DNA of 64,000 nucleotides from Candidatus Wirthbacteria bacterium (GTDB lineage Bacteria > Patescibacteriota > CG2-30-54-11), in NCBI GenBank assembly GCA_903889905.1, contig CAISZI010000046.1, positions 64,853 to 128,852 on the forward strand, given 5' to 3'. Under the pieces are notes generated by a model. It searched no databases. It worked only from the letters and a program-made list of their open reading frames with translations, and was not told where the DNA came from. Below are positions 2,635 through 64,000 of the stretch, in pieces. The position numbers and the translations under genes are program-made. Numbering within the stretch: position 1 is the stretch's first letter; the number at the start of each line of letters is the position of its first letter.

Positions 2635-3011
2635 AAAAAACAACGAAACTCCTGGTTTTTCTGTCCACCTGGGCCCTGGTCATCAGCTTTGTTGTCGTTG
2701 CCATCGGGATCAACTCCAGCAATTCTGCCAATACTCCCACAGCAGTCACGTCAACCAACTCGTCTGCTGCGACGACGACAAATACTCCCAGCGCCAATAC
2801 AAATTCCAGCTCAACCTCCACGACAGCCAACACCACGCAGACCAACAGCAATCGCTGCGTTGTCACCGTCAATGGTTCCCAATACGACGTCACACAACTG
2901 CAGTATACCCACTCCGGCGGCAATGTCTTTAGCTGTGGCACGGATATGACCGCGACCTTTGAATCCATGCATGGTACGCGTTGGAGCAAAATTGCCCGTT
3001 ATAAAATCTAA
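2631..3011 (+). CDS. Secreted Ser/Thr/Asn-rich protein with a C-terminal mini cytochrome b5-like domain (paralog of 243..821)
   Basis: Its ATG overlaps the reductase stop (ATGA). Signal/anchor MKKTTKLLVFLSTWALVISFVVVAIG. C-terminal 50 aa are about 75% identical to the 243..821 C-terminus (VNGSQYDVT..HSGG..CGTDMT..F..MHG). Confidence 0.6.
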   Translation: MKKTTKLLVFLSTWALVISFVVVAIGINSSNSANTPTAVTSTNSSAATTTNTPSANTNSSSTSTTANTTQTNSNRCVVTVNGSQYDVTQLQYTHSGGNVFSCGTDMTATFESMHGTRWSKIARYKI

Positions 3012-3088
3012 CCAGCGAAAACATACAAAGGTGGAAGTTGCTTAGAGGCAGTGGGTGTTAACTTTATCACTTTATCACTAAGTTTCCG

Positions 3089-3763
3089 ATGCGCATTCTG
3101 ATTGTTGAGGACGAAGAACGTATTGCCACGAATCTCCAGAAAATGCTGCAAAAACAAGCGTTTGCCGTTGATCTGGCTGCGACGGTGGCCATTGCCAAGC
3201 AAAAAATCAACACGGATTCTTATGACCTGGCCATTATTGACTGGATGTTACCAGATGGAACCGGAATCGACGTAATTACGGCCATCCGCACACTGGCGAC
3301 ATCAACGCTGATCCTGATGGTCACAGCCCGCAGCCAGGTGGAGGACAAAGTCGAAGGACTGGAAAACGGGGCCGACGATTACCTCACCAAACCATTTGCG
3401 ATGACGGAACTGATTGCCCGGGTCAAAGCACTGCTGCGGCGACTGCCCCATGCTCCGCAAGCACCCATTCTAAAAATCGCTGACCTGGAAATCAATACCA
3501 ACACACATAGCGTCATCCGCGCCGGCAAAACCATTACCCTGTCACCGCGGGAGTACGGTTTGCTGGAATATTTGGCCAAACATGTTGGCGTCGCCCAGGA
3601 ACGCCTTGATCTCCTGACCCATGTCTGGGATGAAAATGCTGACCCCTTTTCCAACACGGTGGATGTTCACATCCGTTATTTGCGCCACAAACTTGACGAT
3701 CCCTTTCGCGTTAAACTGATCAAGACCGTCAAAGGCAAAGGATACATGATATGTCCAGACTAA
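3089..3763 (+). CDS. OmpR-family response regulator (receiver plus winged-helix)
   Basis: MRILIVEDEERIA..DLAIIDWMLPDGTGIDV..VTAR..; C-terminal winged-helix motif. A TTTATCAC x2 direct repeat sits at 3063-3078 upstream. Confidence 0.85.
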   Translation: MRILIVEDEERIATNLQKMLQKQAFAVDLAATVAIAKQKINTDSYDLAIIDWMLPDGTGIDVITAIRTLATSTLILMVTARSQVEDKVEGLENGADDYLTKPFAMTELIARVKALLRRLPHAPQAPILKIADLEINTNTHSVIRAGKTITLSPREYGLLEYLAKHVGVAQERLDLLTHVWDENADPFSNTVDVHIRYLRHKLDDPFRVKLIKTVKGKGYMICPD

Positions 3764-21827: not shown

Positions 21828-23860
21828 TGAGTGATCAACCCAACAACGCGATTCCTCCCAAACAACCTCCTCGCCGCATGGGCGGTCCCATGGGTGGCAT
21901 GGGTGGCCCCATGGGCGGCATGATGGGCGGCGCCAAAGCCAAAAATTTCAAAGGAACTTTGGGCAAACTGGTGCAATACATGCGTCCTTTCTGGATCTCG
22001 ATTATCATCGTCATTGTTTTCGCCATCCTCAGCACTGTCTTCAGCATCATGAGCCCCAAAATCCTGGGCAACATGACCAACCAGGTCGTCAGTGACTACA
22101 TCAATATGACCGTCTATGACCAAACCATGGCCCGCCTGCCTGCAGGCACGACGCTTGCTCCCGGCACCACTGGCGCCCAGATTCTCAAAAGTGCACCCGC
22201 GGCGGCGTTGCAAAAAATCCCAGCTGATCAACTTGCCAAAATTCAATCCTTGGATTTTAGCCACCGTCCAGGCGTCAACTTTGACACCCTGGGCAAGACT
22301 GCCATGTTGCTCCTGTTCTTGTATGCCTTGAGTGCGATCTTCAGCTACATACAGGGTTGGATCATGACCAGTGTGTCGCAAAAAATCACCTACCAGTTCC
22401 GCACCGACATTGCCGCCAAAATCAACCGCCTGCCACTCAAATTCTATGATTCCAAAACCCATGGCGAAATCCTCAGTCGCGTCACCAACGACGTCGACAC
22501 CGTCAGCCAAACCCTCAACCAGAGCCTGTCGCAGATCGTCACTTCAGTGACCATGCTGGTCGGCATCCTGGTGATGATGTTCTCGATCAGTTTCTGGATG
22601 ACTCTGGTCGCGTTACTGGTGCTGCCACTTAGCATGGGTTTTATTACCACCATTGTCAAAAAGTCCCAGGGCTATTTCAAACAGCAACAGGAATCGCTGG
22701 GGAATATCAATGGCCATATCGAAGAAATGTATTCGGGCCATAATGTGATGAAAGTCTTTAACGGTGAAGCGCGCTCCATCGCCAAATTCAGCACGATCAA
22801 CGATGAACTCTTTGTCAGCGGCTGGAAATCACAGTTTCTCTCTGGCCTGATGTTCCCGATCATGAACTTCATTGGCAACCTCGGCTATATCGGGATTGCG
22901 GTACTGGGCGGTTACCTCGCTATCAACGGTAAACTGCAGATCGGCGATATCCAGGCTTTTATCCAGTACATGCGCCAGTTCAACCAGCCCATTGCCCAGA
23001 CCGCCAATATTGCCAACGTCATGCAATCCACCGCCGCTGCCGCCGAACATGTGTTTGAATTCCTGGCCGAAACCGATGAAATCCCCGAAGCTGCAAATCC
23101 TAAATCCTTGGGACAGGTTCAAGGAACCGTGGAATTCAACCACGTTGTCTTTGGCTACAATGCTGACAAGACCATCATCCACGACTTCACGGCCAAAGTC
23201 GCACCCGGCCAGCGTATCGCCATTGTCGGGCCCACCGGCGCTGGCAAAACCACCATGGTCAATCTGCTCATGCGTTTCTATGACGTCAGTAGCGGTGCAA
23301 TCAAAATTGACGGCATTGATATCCGCGACCTGAAGCGTGCCGATGTGCGCAAATGCTTTGGCATGGTGCTGCAGGACACCTGGCTGTTCAATGGCACCAT
23401 CCGCGACAACATTGCCTACGGCAAACCCGACGCCACCGAAGCCGAAATCCTGAGCGCCGCCAAGGCTGCCCAGGTCGACCACTTCGTCAACTCGCTTCCC
23501 AAAGGTTACGACCTCGAACTCAATGAAGAAGCCGATAATATCTCACAAGGTGAAAAACAGCTACTGACCATTGCTCGTGCCATGCTCGCCAAGACGCCCA
23601 TGCTTATCCTGGACGAAGCCACCAGTTCGGTCGACACCCGAACCGAAGTCCTCATCCAAAAAGCCATGGACAACCTGATGAAAGGCAAAACCTGCTTTGT
23701 CATTGCCCATCGTCTCAGCACCATCCGCGACGCCGACCTGATCCTGGTCATGGACCATGGCAACATCGTTGAACAGGGCTCACACACGCAACTCCTGGCC
23801 CAAAACGGCTTCTATGCCAATTTGTACAACAGCCAGTTCGCCGGTTCGGACGCAGCATAA
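21827..23860 (+). CDS. ABC exporter half-transporter (likely heterodimer partner) with an N-terminal (GGPMG)n Met/Gly repeat
   Basis: Walker A GPTGAGKTT, signature ISQGEKQLLTIAR, Walker B LILDEA. The N-terminus MGGPMGGMGGPMGGMMGG is encoded by a tandem DNA repeat at 21878-21933. Start overlaps the upstream stop by 1 nt. Confidence 0.85.
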   Translation: MSDQPNNAIPPKQPPRRMGGPMGGMGGPMGGMMGGAKAKNFKGTLGKLVQYMRPFWISIIIVIVFAILSTVFSIMSPKILGNMTNQVVSDYINMTVYDQTMARLPAGTTLAPGTTGAQILKSAPAAALQKIPADQLAKIQSLDFSHRPGVNFDTLGKTAMLLLFLYALSAIFSYIQGWIMTSVSQKITYQFRTDIAAKINRLPLKFYDSKTHGEILSRVTNDVDTVSQTLNQSLSQIVTSVTMLVGILVMMFSISFWMTLVALLVLPLSMGFITTIVKKSQGYFKQQQESLGNINGHIEEMYSGHNVMKVFNGEARSIAKFSTINDELFVSGWKSQFLSGLMFPIMNFIGNLGYIGIAVLGGYLAINGKLQIGDIQAFIQYMRQFNQPIAQTANIANVMQSTAAAAEHVFEFLAETDEIPEAANPKSLGQVQGTVEFNHVVFGYNADKTIIHDFTAKVAPGQRIAIVGPTGAGKTTMVNLLMRFYDVSSGAIKIDGIDIRDLKRADVRKCFGMVLQDTWLFNGTIRDNIAYGKPDATEAEILSAAKAAQVDHFVNSLPKGYDLELNEEADNISQGEKQLLTIARAMLAKTPMLILDEATSSVDTRTEVLIQKAMDNLMKGKTCFVIAHRLSTIRDADLILVMDHGNIVEQGSHTQLLAQNGFYANLYNSQFAGSDAA

Positions 23861-23885
23861 AAACAAGTCGCCAAAACCCTGACAT

Positions 23886-23922
23886 AAAATCCCGCGTTGC
23901 CTGCAACGCGGGATTTTATTGT
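23886..23922 (+). terminator. Rho-independent terminator after the ABC exporter pair
   Basis: ATCCCGCGTTGC-CTG-GCAACGCGGGAT 12-bp stem followed by TTTTATT. Confidence 0.7.
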
Positions 23923-49080: not shown

Positions 49081-50241
49081 TTAGAGGAATAGAAACACCC
49101 CGATCGCGACCAACGTGCACACTACCGCGAAACCAAATGTGGCTGCCGGCGCAAGCAGGGACCACAAAAAACCGCCGATGATCGAGGACAGCAGTGTCGC
49201 CAGACTGGTTATGGTATAAAACGTGCCATAGGCCGTGCCGGCTTTGTCCTGCGTCGTGAGCGAGCCAATCATAGCTTTGGAAATGCCGTCGGTAAAAGCG
49301 ATATAAAACCCGTAAATTCCAAACAATGCCCAAACCAGCAGTGGATTCGTATTAAACGCAAATCCGGCGTACACCAGAGCAAAGATCGCCAGGCCGATGA
49401 CCAGCACTTTGCGCGCCCCGATCCGGTCCGCCAGCCGTCCGGCCGGCGTGGAGGCCAGTGAATAAACCAGATTATAGAGAATGTAGGCCGAAATCACCGC
49501 GACCAGACTGAGCCCCAGCCCTTGGGAACGCAGGATCAAAAACGAGTCGGAACTGTTACCGAGCGCAAAAATTGTCATGCCCACCAGAAACAGTTTGAAC
49601 TCACGTGGCATTCCCCACAGTGACAGGCTGAGTTAAACTTTGCTCGAAAGAATTTTTGTGCGCGTATCCTGAATAAAAACAAAAAACAGCAAGCTGAGCA
49701 CCGCCGGAATCGTTGCCAGATAAAGCACTGTACGAAAATTATTATGCAGTAAATAAAGCAAAACCAGCGCAATCGTCGGCCCAATCACCGCGCCCAGCGA
49801 ATCCATGGAGCGGTGAAAGCCAAAGATAAAACCTTTGTTGGTGGCGTCGGTTTCTTCCAGCAGCAAGGCGTCACGCGCCCCAGTACGTGCACCTTTGCCC
49901 AGCCGGTCCACCGTCCTCGCCAGCAACACCATGGGCCAACTGCTGGCAAGCGCGATCAGTACTTTGGACAAAGCCGCAGCGCCATAACCGGAGACGACAA
50001 AAATTTTACGTTTCTGCAATTTGTCCGACCAGTAGCCAAAGATCGCCTTAAAAAAAGCCGCCATCCCTTCGGCAACACCTTCGATGATGCCCACCACAAA
50101 CACCGGAGCGCCCAACACCTGGGTTAAAAAAATAGGCATAATCGGATAGAGCATCTCCGACGCGGTGTCGTTGAACAGGCTGACCAGGCTGAGATACCAG
50201 ACGCGGCGAGGGATTTTGAGCTTGGATGCAGGCATGGGCAA
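49081..50241 (-). pseudogene. MFS transporter interrupted by a single in-frame TAA (minus-strand stop at 49635-49633); halves 49633..50241 and 49081..49611
   Basis: The two ORFs are in the same frame, separated by ...SSKV*LSLSLWGMPREFKL. Together they give a 386-aa, about 12-TM MFS-like protein. Confidence 0.6.
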
Positions 50242-59592: not shown

Positions 59593-59723
59593 GATGCCTT
59601 AGTTATTAAAAAGGGCGAAAGAAATGGAATCATGACGACAGACTACACAACTTTGCAATTCACAAGTGCTCTATTTGTCAGCGCCCTGACATATTTAATA
59701 CTAATTCTGTCAATCAATTCATT

Positions 59724-60863
59724 CTACTTCGCTACTGGCATCAGAAAAGTCGACAAATTATCTCTCGTCACCACAGAACTCACGCTTCCCGTATAGGTCT
59801 CCAAAAAAATCTTGGGAGTGTTATCTCTGACTTTTGAATTCCATTTACATTCGAACGCTGCCAATTTACCCTGACTTTCTTCAATCAGATCGATTTCCTG
59901 CTGGTCATACGTCCGCCAAAAGTAATAATTGGCGACCTTTTGGTGGTGATAGCCCGATTTGAGCCGTTCCGCGATGCAATAATTCTCCCAGATCGCTCCA
60001 ATATCGCCACGCACCGAGAGCGGATTGAAATTCTGGATCAGTGCGTTGCGAATTCCCAAGTCCCAAAAATAAATCTTGGTTGACTTACTGATCTCCTTGC
60101 GCAGGTTACGGCTAAAGGCGGACAGGTGGAAAATGACGAACGTCTTTTTGAGCAATTCCACATAACGTTGCACCGTGACGGTATTGAGTCCCAGTTGCTT
60201 CCCGATCTCCGCAAACGACACCTCACTCCCAACTTGCAGCGCAAGCAGCTGGAGAATTTTGAGTAGTTGTTCTGGTTTTTTGAGTTGTTCGTACTCCAGG
60301 ATGTCTTTATAAAGATAATTATTGGCGAGTTTTTGCAGATACAAGTCTTTGTCGCTGTCACTCAGATTGACAATGTCAGGATAGCTACCATACCTCAACA
60401 CTGCATCCAGCTGACTTTGCATATCAATCGGATTGCTTTGCGAGAGCAGCTCCTCATAAGAAAGAGGCAGGAGCAGATAGTCCAGAACGCGCCCCGTGAG
60501 CGGCTCATTGATCGTATTCGCCAGCTCAAAACTACTCGATCCCGTGGCGATGATCTGGGTATCCGGCAGATAAGTGTGCAATATTTTGAGCACCAAGCCG
60601 ATATCTCGAACTCTCTGCGCCTCATCCAGGATCAAGAGAGAAATATTGCCCAAAAACTGCTTCAGTTTGATCTCATCCTGCTGCTCCAGAGCTTCACGAT
60701 TGCGCAGAAGGTCGCAATCAATATAGCGAGATCCTTGTGGGTTATGATCTAGCATAGAACGCACCAGCGTCGTCTTGCCCACCTGCCGCGCACCATAAAT
60801 GACGATCACTTTCCCTTTGTGAAGTTGCTGCTCGATGATCGGTTGCAGGGTTCGTTGATACAT
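59724..60863 (-). CDS. COG1373-type AAA ATPase with a C-terminal DUF4143 (restriction-endonuclease-like) domain
   Basis: VIVIYGARQVGKTTLVRSML Walker A; Walker B LLILDEAQ; C-terminal DUF4143-like region; AT-rich codon usage. Confidence 0.75.
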   Translation of the reverse strand: MYQRTLQPIIEQQLHKGKVIVIYGARQVGKTTLVRSMLDHNPQGSRYIDCDLLRNREALEQQDEIKLKQFLGNISLLILDEAQRVRDIGLVLKILHTYLPDTQIIATGSSSFELANTINEPLTGRVLDYLLLPLSYEELLSQSNPIDMQSQLDAVLRYGSYPDIVNLSDSDKDLYLQKLANNYLYKDILEYEQLKKPEQLLKILQLLALQVGSEVSFAEIGKQLGLNTVTVQRYVELLKKTFVIFHLSAFSRNLRKEISKSTKIYFWDLGIRNALIQNFNPLSVRGDIGAIWENYCIAERLKSGYHHQKVANYYFWRTYDQQEIDLIEESQGKLAAFECKWNSKVRDNTPKIFLETYTGSVSSVVTRDNLSTFLMPVAK

Positions 60864-61018
60864 AAATCAACCTACTTAAATATTTATTTTTAGCTAAATT
60901 CATTTACTATGATAACAAAAATTAAGTACAAAACAACTGGCATCTTCCTCAAACACCCTTTCTACCGCTTTCTCGATAATGAACGGAATGAATGGTTTAA
61001 AACTCACGAATACAGAAA

Positions 61019-61042
61019 AAGATGGCGTCATGACGCCATCTT
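61019..61042. repeat. Copy A of a repeat family containing the perfect 24-bp palindrome AAGATGGCGTCATGACGCCATCTT
   Basis: Exact palindrome. About 30 bp of its upstream flank (GGTTTAAAACTCACGAATACAGAAAAA) and a downstream block GGTGGGCCATCTGTCCCAAAACTGGAACACCGTG (61118-61151) are shared with copy B. Lies about 156 bp upstream of the 60863 gene start. Confidence 0.7.
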
Positions 61043-61520
61043 GAGTTTACATTCTTATTTGGCGCAGCCATCCGTAGCTTGGCTACTTTTTTTAAAAAGG
61101 GAGCCTTCCCGAAGCGAAGGATGGTGGGCCATCTGTCCCAAAACTGGAACACCGTGGTGACCAAACTTAAATCAATTTACGACTTACAATCACTTATTTA
61201 TTACCCAAAATCCCCAATAACGGAAATCAAACTATATTTTGGATCTTTTAACTGTCATCATCGTTGCTATTATGCCTGAGAACAAGTTTGATAAGTCTTA
61301 GTAATGCCCTCATCCTTATGCCATGCTTCCAAATCAGACAGTTCTTCATTGAACTACTTCTTGTATATTTATTTGTAGTCCAATACCGCCTTGTCGTTCA
61401 GAGTAAACAATACTTTTATGCAACAAACACCAAAATTGTTTTGCTCTAATCACGAACTTAAAACTATACCTTTATTGGTCGCTGTATCTTCTTGATTGTT
61501 GAAAGAACCTCTTTAATCCC

Positions 61521-62183
61521 CTATTTACCCCCCAATTCTGAGCCCTGAATTACCTCACTCATTGGATCCACTTCCTTAGCTGCTTCTTGACTATTTTTAG
61601 CATAAGAATCAAATGCCTCAGTTATAACTTCAAAAGGCTTCTCTGTATTACAATTACTATAATCATATGTTTTCCTCATTGAACGTTTGATATCACTCGG
61701 TATATCAAGTGGAAACAATTCCTCTGTCTCTGAAGTCAATCGTCCATCAGGTCCGTATTGATATTCACATTTTGTCTCCGCTCGCACCAAGACGCCTTTA
61801 TCGATAATTCTCCAATAAGAATGTCTCTCAACTAATCTCCCGTCCTGATCGTAAACCCAAGCACGAATTGGTTCGTGATTTGGGTTACGCTTATGAAATT
61901 TTTCTTCAACACGGAGTCGCCCATCAGGATTATGACGTAATCTATACTTGAAATGATTTATCAATCCAGGATCAATATCAGGATAACATTTTTTGTTTGC
62001 TTCCCAACTAAAATGGCCAACCCATGCCCAAAACATTTCTACTTCTCTAAGGTTGACTCCAGGATAGCGAACACCGGGCTCTACATTAGTAGTTGTAATA
62101 GCATCAGAGTCGACACCAATAGCATTCATTTTTTGTCTAAAAACTTGATCAAATTTACTATCTGATAATGTAGACGCCATCAT
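61521..62183 (-). CDS. Small protein (220 aa) with three YD/RHS-like repeats (Y.YD.DGRL), in an AT-rich island
   Basis: NPDGRLRVEE, WVYDQDGRLVERHSY, EYQYGPDGRLTSE match the YD-repeat core (YDxxGRL). Followed by about 480 bp of AT-rich non-coding DNA. Confidence 0.5.
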   Translation of the reverse strand: MMASTLSDSKFDQVFRQKMNAIGVDSDAITTTNVEPGVRYPGVNLREVEMFWAWVGHFSWEANKKCYPDIDPGLINHFKYRLRHNPDGRLRVEEKFHKRNPNHEPIRAWVYDQDGRLVERHSYWRIIDKGVLVRAETKCEYQYGPDGRLTSETEELFPLDIPSDIKRSMRKTYDYSNCNTEKPFEVITEAFDSYAKNSQEAAKEVDPMSEVIQGSELGGK

Positions 62184-62356
62184 TTATTCCTATAAATAAG
62201 AAGAATATTTAGTCTTTAATTATATAATAAAATATTTATTTATCAATACCGGAAGTTAAAAAAACTAGTACAAAAAACCTCGCCCACCCTTTGATGGCTT
62301 TAATACGCCATTTCGTCTAGACTTTGGACAAGTGGCTTAAATTCTCAAAAACAAAA

Positions 62357-62380
62357 AAGATGGCGTCATGACGCCATCTT
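62357..62380. repeat. Copy B of the 24-bp palindrome repeat family
   Basis: Same exact palindrome. About 110 bp from 62300 are similar to copy C. The downstream block GGTGGACCAGCTGTCCCAAAACTGGAACACCGTG lies at 62527-62560. Lies about 174 bp upstream of the 62183 gene start. Confidence 0.7.
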
Positions 62381-62622
62381 TTGCCAATGTACTGCTTTCC
62401 CTTCCGTTCCGAGGACGGAACTTCAGGGACCCCAATGAATAAGTACTTCTAAACGCGAGGACTTGTTAAGCAGTACTTTATAAATTTCATCTAAGTTCGA
62501 AGACTCACTAAGATTCTCTTTATGGTGGACCAGCTGTCCCAAAACTGGAACACCGTGCTAACCTGTTTATCCCGATTATCCAACACAATTAGTTACTGTT
62601 TGCCTGGAATGACGGAATCGCG

Positions 62623-63798
62623 CTAAATGTATTTCCATACATTTTCTTTGGTAATGCAGTGATAACTTTCTATTCTGTCGGCATAAGCAGTCTGAAAAGC
62701 CCTGGTGAGCGGAACAGGAGTGGAATACTTCACTTCAACAGGAATCAATTTTTCTCCCTGCGTATTTGTCACCACAAAATCAACCTCAAAGGAATTCTTG
62801 CTCTGCCAATAATAGAGCATTTGATTGGTTGAATAGTACGTCATATTCGTCTGTAGTAGATTGTGGACGAAATTTTCAAATAAACCACCGCTACTCTGGC
62901 CACTTCGAGCAGTTATTGGCCGGAAATCTTTGGCCAATGTATTCAGTATGCCCAGATCTGTGAAGTACACCTTGAATGGCTTATTTAATTCTTTTCTGGG
63001 ATTCTGACTAAAGGCGGAAACGATTGAAATCAGATTGAATTTCTGCAATAAATCAATGTAACTGATAACCGTATTCCTGCTCATTTCGAGTTGTTGTGCG
63101 AGTTCATTGGGATTGACCAGACTTCCCACCTGCAACGCCAGCAGTTGGGCTAATTTTTTGATCTTCTGAGGGTTCTTGATGCCTTCGATTTCAAAAACAT
63201 CCTTGAACAGCAAAGAGTTAACGTAATCTGCCAAGATATCCATTTTGTACTGCGGAGTTTCCTGCGCCAGAACTTCCGGTAAACTACCATAAGTCAGCAA
63301 TGGCTCAACCAGATGAGTAACTTTGGCCTGTTGCAGCAGATTGTCATAAGCACCAAAAGCATAGGGTTTGTCTGTTTCGCCAACGATCTCCCTGACGCTA
63401 AGTGGATACATTTCCAGAATAACCTTTCTGCCCAAGGCGCTGTCACCAAGCTTCTGTAGCATCAGGAAACTCGCCGATCCACTGGCCAGGACACGGATAT
63501 GTGGAAAATGATCATGAACCAGTTTAAGCGTGCTGCCGATCTGATCGACATATTGGATTTCGTCCAGCAGCAGAATCTTGGGTTCTGTTCCCAGGATATT
63601 CTGCAAGTTGGCCAAAGAAGGCTGGCGAAACAATTCCTGATTGTCCGTATCTTCGAAATCAAAATACAGATGGGGCTCATCAAAGTATCGTTTCAGTTCA
63701 ACGGTTTTACCCACACGGCGCTGCCCAATCAAAATGACAACACGGAAACCATCTTGAAAATACTGCTTGATTTTATGGGTGATAAGTCGAGTGATCAT
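62623..63798 (-). CDS. COG1373-type AAA ATPase with DUF4143 C-terminal domain (paralog of 59724..60863)
   Basis: VVILIGQRRVGKTVELKRYF Walker A; LLLDEIQY Walker B; the TATAAT at 63808-63813 lies only 6 nt from the ATG (leaderless-like). Confidence 0.75.
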   Translation of the reverse strand: MITRLITHKIKQYFQDGFRVVILIGQRRVGKTVELKRYFDEPHLYFDFEDTDNQELFRQPSLANLQNILGTEPKILLLDEIQYVDQIGSTLKLVHDHFPHIRVLASGSASFLMLQKLGDSALGRKVILEMYPLSVREIVGETDKPYAFGAYDNLLQQAKVTHLVEPLLTYGSLPEVLAQETPQYKMDILADYVNSLLFKDVFEIEGIKNPQKIKKLAQLLALQVGSLVNPNELAQQLEMSRNTVISYIDLLQKFNLISIVSAFSQNPRKELNKPFKVYFTDLGILNTLAKDFRPITARSGQSSGGLFENFVHNLLQTNMTYYSTNQMLYYWQSKNSFEVDFVVTNTQGEKLIPVEVKYSTPVPLTRAFQTAYADRIESYHCITKENVWKYI

Positions 63799-63830
63799 GG
63801 TGATATTATAGCATCTGAAGTATTTATTTT

Positions 63831-63876
63831 GTCAATCAATTGACATATAAAGTACTTTATATGTCAATTGATTGAC
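63831..63876. promoter_or_regulatory. Perfect 46-bp palindrome (GTCAATCAATTGACATATAAAGTAC|GTACTTTATATGTCAATTGATTGAC) overlapping the -35 region of the DUF4143 ATPase gene
   Basis: Exact reverse-complement symmetry over 46 nt; contains TTGACA on both strands. Positioned 33-78 bp upstream of the ATG at 63798. Confidence 0.8.
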
Positions 63877-63968
63877 GGCCTCCTAAAAAACTCGAACACC
63901 ATATCATGGCTTCACAACGCCATTCTGATACAATTTCGGACAGGTGGTTAAAATCCCTCAAACACAAA

Positions 63969-63992
63969 AAGATGGCGTCATGACGCCATCTT
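63969..63992. repeat. Copy C of the 24-bp palindrome repeat family (at the window edge)
   Basis: Same palindrome plus a roughly 70 bp upstream flank similar to copy B. About 171 bp upstream of the 63798 gene start. Confidence 0.7.
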
Positions 63993-64000
63993 ATGCCAAT

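Follow-up and report, generated by a model that had tools for sequence, protein, structure and literature searches.

A putative terminator-bearing spacer repeat and a candidate double operator in a low-GC island with two PDC-S01 ATPase genes

ATPases with a DUF4143 domain form the PDC-S01 class, a very common but unvalidated class of candidate defence genes (PMC12988326). When eight candidates were assayed in E. coli B, a PDC-S01 representative was among them and was absent from the four that protected against T4, T5 or T7 (bioRxiv 10.1101/2024.09.26.614923). These ATPases are among the most common candidate defence genes reported in prokaryotes, and both their control and their movement are obscure. 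In this study, we analyzed a stretch of 64,000 nucleotides (hereafter the window) from contig CAISZI010000046.1 of a Candidatus Wirthbacteria bacterium (assembly GCA_903889905.1), the last 4.4 kb of which contains three consecutive minus-strand genes, two of them for PDC-S01 ATPases, together with three copies of a 24-bp palindrome and a single 46-bp palindrome.

Several described systems combine parts of this kind. In integron cassette arrays and clusters of attC sites lacking an integrase (CALINs), co-oriented unrelated genes are parted by a partly palindromic repeat, the attC site (57-141 nt), which has conserved ends and a variable middle. The 'moron' units of phages and islands have a promoter, a downstream intrinsic terminator and a guanine-cytosine (GC) content below that of the host chromosome, whereas the REP/BIME, Correia and ERIC-type repeats, which resemble miniature inverted-repeat transposable elements, are short palindromic intergenic elements. 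They are able to terminate transcription, are spread over the whole genome in tens to hundreds of copies and are frequently bounded by terminal inverted repeats. A palindromic double site on the gene's own -35 element is found in autoregulated defence or selfish genes, such as those controlled by the C-protein of restriction-modification systems or by helix-turn-helix (HTH)/WYL regulators of defence islands. Viewed against these systems, we consider it reasonably probable, as one joint reading, that our region is the edge of a low-GC, horizontally acquired island whose co-oriented genes are transcribed independently, that the 24-bp palindrome belongs to a terminator spacer copied between the island units, and that the 46-bp palindrome is a double operator of the third gene. 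The parts of the island, terminators and an operator, are of ordinary regulatory kinds.

The repeated hairpin spacer

The three island genes are located at 59724-60863 (gene 1), 61521-62180 (gene 2, with an alternative start at 62183) and 62623-63798 (gene 3), all on the minus strand, and the island has a GC content of 36-47%, compared with 51% in the remaining window. The original prediction of consecutive minus-strand genes in AT-rich DNA was thereby confirmed, the genes appearing as separate co-oriented units. It had also placed three copies of a palindrome 156-174 bp upstream of these genes, and we indeed found exact copies of the 24-bp sequence AAGATGGCGTCATGACGCCATCTT at 61019 (copy A), 62357 (copy B) and 63969 (copy C), with no mismatches, when none was expected by chance. 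The distances from palindrome to start codon were 156 bp for copy A (start at 60863), 174 bp for copy B (62183) and 171 bp for copy C (63798), and copy B widens to a 28-bp perfect palindrome (62355-62382). No further copy with up to three mismatches was present in the 64 kb, and no degenerate one in the other 59.6 kb.

Conservation extends beyond the palindrome, as had been claimed. First, the hairpin and about 25 nt on its gene-proximal side were conserved in all three copies. Second, copies B and C shared 116 nt at approximately 75% identity, and similarity in the further flank was significant both for B and C (P<0.001) and for A and B (P=0.009 compared with shuffled sequences). Finally, the second conserved block that had been noted in copies A and B (block 2) was recovered with 38 of 42 positions identical (90%). 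On the other hand, the spacers between block 2 and the hairpin (78 nt in A and 139 nt in B) were unrelated (P=0.95), and no significant similarity between A and B could be observed upstream of block 2 (P=0.68). According to these pairwise tests, the module consists of discrete conserved boxes parted by unrelated DNA rather than of a single continuous repeat. All boxes were assigned to the minus strand: module A (60993-61042) comprises the hairpin at 61019-61042, the U-tract and the conserved tail of about 25 nt, which together make a predicted Rho-independent terminator, and has a distal box GCCAGTTGTTTTGTACTTAATTTTTGTTA (60913-60941) in common with module B (62257-62283; local alignment, the P=0.009 match given above). 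Module B (62257-62388) contains the 28-bp palindrome hairpin, the U-tract TTTTTTGTTTTTG and a flank of about 100 nt common to module C, and module C (63885-64000) contains the hairpin at 63969-63992, a U-tract and the flank common to module B, and runs into the window end. Block 2 lies at 61121-61162 in copy A, where repeat search, local alignment and folds showed a 42-nt box with a small stem-loop (GUUCCA-GUUU-UGGGAC), and at 62522-62563 in copy B (repeat search and local alignment).

The hairpins have the anatomy of intrinsic terminators. Each consists of a GC-rich stem of 10-12 bp with five G-C pairs and a 4-nt loop, and folds with -15 to -18 kcal/mol (approximately -16.9 kcal/mol for copy A, which is followed by TTTTTCTGTATT on the minus strand). 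In all three copies, a T-rich tract stands directly after the stem on the gene (minus) strand (TTTTTCTGTATT, TTTTTTGTTTTTG and TTTTTGTGTTTG), whereas the plus-strand tails are short, with two to four T, the best being TTTT in copy B. Because a U-tract follows on the gene strand only, the hairpin reads as a Rho-independent terminator, and from the earlier suggestion of a bidirectional terminator we retained the terminator but not the second direction. Under strict criteria, the three island hairpins were the sole perfect-stem, T-tailed hairpins in the 64 kb, and each lies past the end of one co-oriented gene and before the promoter of the next. Thus, the hairpins have the sequence features of intrinsic terminators and would be expected to end transcription. 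The likeliest reading of the module, judged from sequence, is that the 24-28-bp palindrome would serve as the stem-loop of a terminator on the gene strand, that a spacer bearing this terminator would have been copied between successive units of the island, and that, with one spacer copy per gene pair, each unit (own promoter, gene, long 3' untranslated region (UTR) and terminator) would be insulated from read-through.

The contrast between core and flank bears on how the copies arose. The core is identical at 24 of 24 positions, compared with 76% in the B/C flanks (P about 0.001 per pair), and the two ATPases are only 30% identical; therefore, the hairpin is under constraint and is not a duplication relic. 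That an ATPase gene was recently duplicated in tandem with its flanks, leaving the repeats behind as neutral leftovers, we considered extremely improbable. Two of the three genes do belong to one family, but the low identity of the ATPases speaks against such leftovers, the third gene is unrelated to them, the DNA adjoining the identical core is 76% identical or cannot be aligned, and translated searches for gene remnants in the spacers gave only noise-level, non-colinear matches. Recent duplication was rejected as a candidate on the ATPase identity, the core-flank contrast and the remnant-free spacers. As a separate observation, the AT-rich segment 61249-61388 (minus strand), which lies in the spacer between gene 2 and module A, contains a degenerate copy of the -35 region of the gene 2 promoter (61365-61388 compared with 62232-62251) and a degenerate copy of the gene 1 5' leader (61357-61378 compared with 60872-60893), followed by an open reading frame (ORF) of 33 codons. 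This segment may be a decayed fourth unit.

Several features weigh against the terminator reading. From the stop codon before it, hairpin B is 241 nt away and hairpin A 479 nt, both long distances for a simple gene terminator; block 2 and an 85-nt B/C flank are conserved and are given no role; and a terminator offers no reason why its spacer should be copied between unrelated genes. Furthermore, the loop CATG is itself palindromic, so that each hairpin is also a zero-loop DNA palindrome, a shape that would fit the site of a dimeric protein as well. In this regard, the 24-bp palindrome might be an operator or roadblock for a dimeric DNA-binding protein, such as the gene 1 ATPase, which would co-regulate the three units with or without termination. 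The identity of all three copies including the loop is in line with such a site, as is the presence of long perfect palindromes upstream of ATPases of the gene 3 clade; moreover, the 150 nt upstream of gene 1 contain no inverted repeat of another kind, which leaves the hairpin as the nearest candidate. However, the palindrome is situated 156-179 bp upstream of the starts, beyond the promoters rather than on them, the conserved gene-strand U-tract is expected of a terminator and needless for an operator, and with flanks that are 76% identical, it would not be improbable for all three copies to have the same 4-nt loop. We therefore regard a shared operator, which the original prediction had also suggested, as quite unlikely.

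The conservation of block 2 raised another alternative, in which the module would encode an RNA of approximately 140-260 nt, either small and non-coding or processed from a 3' UTR, that would begin at or before block 2, its functional or seed domain, and end at the hairpin terminator. In favor of such an RNA, block 2 shows 90% conservation and can fold into a small stem-loop, a conserved terminator follows it in both copies, and a promoter-like site (ATGACA-16-TATAGT, 61258-61231) is present upstream of copy A. However, the absence of significant homology upstream of block 2 leaves no conserved promoter there, the middle parts of the two copies are unrelated, Rfam gave no match, and with two copies only covariation is uninformative. 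Three further results concern this idea. Although a MAFFT alignment suggested -35/-10 elements upstream of block 2, the similarity was no better than that of shuffled sequences (the P=0.68 comparison above), and a conserved promoter was rejected. The best duplex of block 2 with the island mRNAs (-38.9 kcal/mol, with the gene 3 5' coding region) was equalled by 5 of 60 shuffles, and an antisense or seed role of block 2 was likewise rejected. Finally, searches for known RNA genes found no tRNA, tmRNA or Rfam family, searches of the spacer modules against Rfam returned no match at the gathering threshold and only generic hairpin look-alikes at E<=5, and long-range pairing within the module was not reproduced between the two copies, which as two sequences give no usable covariation. 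A small RNA is, in our view, rather improbable.

A further alternative is a site-specific recombination system. According to this alternative, the modules (block 2, variable spacer, 24-28-bp palindrome and flank) would be crossover sites at which gene units are captured and shuffled, in an integron-like or some other, new kind of cassette array, with the hairpin as recombinase target. Consistent with shuffling, there is one module per unit pair, placed regularly 156-174 bp before the next start codon; conserved boxes bracket non-homologous spacers of differing length; the palindrome is perfect, with zero loop; the units are of differing origin (orthologues of gene 3 at other loci have no modules, and gene 2 is an orphan); the GC content of the island is low; and a contig from a sister sample leaves the window sequence 33 nt after gene 2. 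On the other hand, no module contained an R'' (RYYYAAC)/R' (GTTRRRY) pair 45-160 nt apart on either strand, and the corresponding 7-mers were no more frequent than expected by chance; attC owes its strand choice to extrahelical bases, which this perfect palindrome does not have; and the units bring their own promoters, including for gene 2 a promoter-like site (62219-62246, minus strand, TTGATA-16-TATAAT) with 11 of 12 matches in a promoter scan. In addition, neither the 10 kb of chromosome adjoining the island on its low-coordinate side nor the large ORFs scanned elsewhere in the window contained a recombinase, and the junction in the sister-sample contig (61488) is approximately 320 nt from the nearest module box. 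The suggestion in the original prediction that the repeats mark cassette boundaries was therefore not sustained in the integron sense, and integron attC identity was ruled out on core-site criteria. Copy B can also be read as a dif/pdif-like Xer site of 11-6-11, but it lacks the ATAA-N6-TTAT core that we take to be typical of dif.

Searches beyond the window pointed in the same direction. Neither the palindrome nor block 2 had a copy in GTDB representative genomes or viral contigs, plasmids and phages yielded for module B nothing but one 32-nt chance match in a Mesomycoplasma record, and no modules were found at the loci of gene 3 orthologues. Four matches to the 20-mer core in JGI metagenomes were dismissed as chance because their flanks were unrelated and high in GC. 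Terminal inverted repeats or target-site duplications of the module were not observed beyond chance-level 6-11-mers. The check for repeat copies elsewhere thus left the island as the only location among the GTDB representatives, JGI metagenomes, viral contigs, plasmids, phages and the rest of the window, and this also speaks against the shuffling of gene units, which on all the evidence is unlikely.

The 46-bp palindrome and related ATPase loci

The palindrome at 63831-63876 is the strongest inverted repeat of the whole window. As originally proposed, it is perfect over 46 bp, with zero loop and no strand of its own, and overlaps the -35 element of gene 3. It is composed of two inverted 16-bp sites, TGTCAAT-NN-ATTGACA (cores GTCAAT-NN-ATTGAC), which are 32 bp apart around the AT-rich centre AGTACT. 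The gene 3 promoter (63805-63835, minus strand) has the -35 element TTGACA (63835-63830), a 19-nt spacer and an extended -10 element TGcTATAAT (hexamer 63810-63805), and the proximal 16-bp site TGTCAATTGATTGACA contains the -35 element. The -10 element ends 6 nt before the ATG and no Shine-Dalgarno sequence is present, so that the gene 3 mRNA looks leaderless, as had been suspected.

Homologues of gene 3 were found in four other contexts, with protein identities of 76%, 63%, 54% and 55%: groundwater contigs with an array of three ATPases (L010-13), loci with a single ATPase gene between wzm and wzt (L014-16), a locus at which the ATPase adjoins a rhodanese gene (L017) and one at which it adjoins a Na/H exchanger gene (L018). 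The neighbouring genes (wzm/wzt, Na/H exchanger, rhodanese and other ATPases) differ wholly between contexts, and the ATPase is the sole gene in common. Nucleotide similarity of the window to L010 and L014 extends upstream through the palindrome, and the arrangement TGACA-21-TGTCA-11-TGACA occupies nearly the same positions relative to the ATG in the window (-68/-47/-36), L010 (-65/-44/-33) and L014 (-66/-45/-34). The -35 element lies within the proximal site in L010 and L014 as well, and the gap of 6 nt between the -10 element and the ATG recurs in both. The composite operator pattern had two exact matches in the window (0.02 expected) and was also present upstream of the orthologues in L010-L016. 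At five orthologue loci, the strongest inverted repeat was within 150 nt upstream of the ATPase start and in the top 0.2-3.4% of windows, and two more distant relatives on viral contigs likewise had their strongest inverted repeat upstream of the ATPase. L017 and L018 have long perfect palindromes of their own, centred on ACTAGT (32 bp and 22 bp), each being the sole one with arms of at least 10 at its locus.

The original prediction had regarded the 46-bp palindrome as the binding site of a dimeric repressor or a recombinase. We found it a strong candidate for a protein-binding site, and of the two binders a repressor acting at an operator is favored over a recombinase, because the same operator architecture lies on the -35 element of the three closest orthologues in unrelated contexts, and the two more distant ones have long palindromes of their own. 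Which protein might bind is suggested by the predicted structure of gene 3 (mean predicted local distance difference test (pLDDT) score 91.5), which contains an AAA+ domain, a winged helix at approximately residues 210-280 and a nuclease-like C-terminus. The nearest solved folds were the archaeal ATPase 2qen and DNA-bound Orc1/Cdc6, and no sequence homologue of the gene 3 ATPase was found in the PDB. Because the ATPase is the only gene common to all contexts and its model has an Orc1/Cdc6-like winged helix-turn-helix (wHTH), its own winged helix would be the most economical binder. In the likeliest and simplest scheme, the 46-bp palindrome would be a double operator, with sites 32 bp (three helical turns) apart and the proximal one covering the -35 element, and the winged helix of the ATPase would bind it, which would result in negative autoregulation of gene 3; both the binder and the sign of regulation are put forward here on the basis of sequence and model. 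The conservation of the operator across unrelated contexts also points to self-regulation through the internal winged helix.

Some observations do not fit this scheme easily. The more distant orthologues L017 and L018 have Shine-Dalgarno sequences and different palindromes, gene 1, which belongs to the same family but to a different clade, has no upstream palindrome, and the -35/-10 spacing of 19 nt at gene 3 is suboptimal, though an extended -10 element is present. Gene 2 and the two other L010 ATPases also have no upstream palindrome. Since gene 1, gene 2 and these two ATPases show none, the operator feature is clade-specific.

The second exact match to the pattern is an orphan gene-3-type operator (59676-59712, minus strand, TGACA-N16-TGTCA-N6-TGACA) at the island edge, 12 nt after the gene 1 stop codon and 84 nt upstream of the start of a nucleoside-hydrolase gene. 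It aligned with the gene 3 operator (P=0.002), with L010 (15 of 16 positions) and with L014 (33 of 42, 79%), and may have been left by a gene-3-type unit since lost, or may serve as a second binding site.

Two of the related loci have features of their own. In L014 (1075-4397) and L015 (9079-11798), a gene 3 orthologue of 63% identity with its double operator is the only gene between a wzm-like gene (ABC2_membrane) and a wzt-like one (ABC_tran/Wzt_C), with 100 bp upstream and 10 bp downstream to its neighbours, which looks like a single-gene insertion into a polysaccharide-export operon. In L010 (1-4581), three DUF4143 ATPase genes follow one another, and the -10 element of each is 3-6 nt upstream of the ATG; a decayed ATPase pseudogene (approximately 2966-3100) is preceded by its own 26-bp perfect palindrome (2924-2949), and the locus has a 33-bp tandem duplication of a promoter region (1412-1477) and further locus-specific intergenic repeats that are different from those of the island.

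Gene content, strain variation and genomic background

Both predicted ATPases were confirmed by Pfam, which identified AAA_14 and DUF4143 in gene 1 (379 aa) and gene 3 (391 aa, with a wHTH between them); gene 3 is identical to the database protein P0002. A check with a defence predictor had been proposed, and PADLOC assigned both to PDC-S01 (model PDLC04789, E=7e-148 for gene 1 and E=2e-97 for gene 3), which is an unvalidated candidate class of single-gene defence that combines an AAA ATPase with a PD-(D/E)xK domain. Gene 2 encodes a 219-aa orphan with YD-type repeats. Its sole match in the main search among 5.8 billion clustered proteins was itself (P0001), and an exhaustive HMMER pass gave one remote relative (E=3e-5). 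The earlier annotation of gene 2 as a YD-repeat protein stands in part: its score was above the cutoff of the NCBIfam profile YD_repeat_2x (TIGR01643; 21.7 bits, cutoff 15.8) but below that of Pfam RHS_repeat (17.5, cutoff 22), and three DGRL-type motifs are visible in the sequence. No PHROG family matched any of the three island proteins, which gives no phage context.

The strain is also represented in the ENA assemblies ERZ18626762, ERZ27313102 and ERZ18625277, and exact-protein look-ups for the three island genes and their neighbours led at most to fragments of 0.8-2.4 kb from it. Contigs from related samples provided some signs of variation at the locus. A 771-nt contig from a sister sample (L009, ERZ18625277) matches the window across gene 2 with one single-nucleotide polymorphism (window 62049) and then departs from it at 61488/61489, 33 nt after the gene 2 stop codon, into GGAGCTAGTATGAGCAAGAAGAAG... 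(L009:741-771). The divergent part, which is only 31 nt long, reads as a Shine-Dalgarno sequence followed by the beginning of another gene. The junction does not coincide with a module box. This contig may represent a strain-level structural variant, the alternative being a chimeric assembly. In addition, contigs from three assemblies of the same population (L007, L008 and L009) end within approximately 40 nt of one another (window 62187-62227) in the very AT-rich gene 2 promoter, and ends of L001, L002, L007 and L008 fall at 59732-59841, near the 3' end of gene 1 and the orphan operator. Such clustered ends could have arisen because AT-rich DNA was poorly covered, or because strains vary where units meet.

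A more far-reaching possibility is that the island is a cassette array built by an undescribed kind of recombination. Either a recombinase with its gene beyond the window would use the palindrome and the boxes for crossover, or PDC-S01 units would themselves be mobile and home to their own palindromic operator. The homing version is suggested by the orphan operator at the array edge, by the L014 orthologue wedged with its operator between wzm and wzt and by the decayed L010 ATPase with its own palindrome. We consider this possibility, in both versions, very improbable. If either were true, selfish spread would take the place of a role in defence, or accompany it, in what is the fourth most common class of 'defence' genes.

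The remaining window is ordinary chromosome with trp genes, metal P-type ATPases, ABC transporters and a subtilase. The closest relatives of its TrpD-TrpC fusion were only 41-54% identical among the same clustered proteins; since no relative exceeds approximately 54%, the source organism is deeply divergent. Several proteins of the island and its surroundings are indexed on a single 129-kb contig alone. Two further features were observed there. At 49081-50241 (minus strand), adjacent ORFs of 176 and 202 aa each match the N-terminal half of the MFS_1 profile (about 1-176), and represent either two half-size transporters in tandem or one gene that has been disrupted. At 23884-23919, just past an ABC-transporter gene ending at 23860, is a near-perfect palindrome of 36 bp with 17-bp arms, ATAAAATCCCGCGTTGCAGGCAACGCGGGATTTTAT. 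Its A-tract and T-tract are typical of a bidirectional terminator, and its sequence has no relation to that of the island hairpins.

Significance and comparison with known systems

Two elements described here are new: a putative operator architecture that is clade-wide in a widespread but uncharacterised class of genes, and a spacer repeat specific to the island. One PDC-S01 clade now has a concrete cis-element, a double TGTCA/TGACA operator on the -35 element of a leaderless promoter, which offers a practical entry point for the biochemistry of these ATPases. The repeated terminator spacer, in turn, shows how such islands may keep neighbouring units transcriptionally apart. If the full genome has more copies or a recombinase, the spacer could prove to be a recombination site.

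When compared with known systems, the array resembles insulated 'moron'-like units more than an integron, because the attC core sites were looked for and not found. Like intrinsic terminators and 'moron' units, the island hairpins have a GC-rich stem-loop with a U-tract on the transcribed strand, and the island genes have a promoter-like site, a downstream terminator and a lower GC content than the host chromosome. The differences are that the same terminator with its flanking boxes is used three times within the 4.4 kb of the island but is absent from the rest of the 64 kb, that the terminators lie 241-479 nt past the stop codons, and that PHROG matches are lacking. With integron cassette arrays and CALINs, the island shares co-oriented unrelated genes parted by a partly palindromic repeat with conserved ends and a variable middle. 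However, it has no R''/R' sites, a perfect palindrome, promoters within the units, no integrase among the ORFs scanned in the window and a module of approximately 250-310 nt, which is longer than an attC site. As in the REP/BIME, Correia and ERIC-type families, the element is a short palindromic intergenic repeat that could act as a terminator, but the three copies found in the window all lie in the island, and no terminal inverted repeats or target duplications were found for it.

With regard to gene 3, two comparisons can be made. First, Orc1/Cdc6-type AAA+ proteins, whose genes adjoin inverted origin recognition box (ORB) repeats, resemble gene 3 in combining an AAA+ domain with a wHTH fold and in lying beside inverted protein-site repeats around an AT-rich centre. 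However, gene 3 has no sequence homology to them and carries a C-terminal PD-(D/E)xK-like domain, so that the likeness is architectural only and a replication role is without support. Second, like autoregulated defence and selfish genes, gene 3 has a palindromic double site on its own -35 element, an operator that travels with the gene across genomes and an HTH-type domain. It differs from them in that the putative regulator would be the effector ATPase-nuclease itself, acting through its internal winged helix, rather than a separate small regulator.

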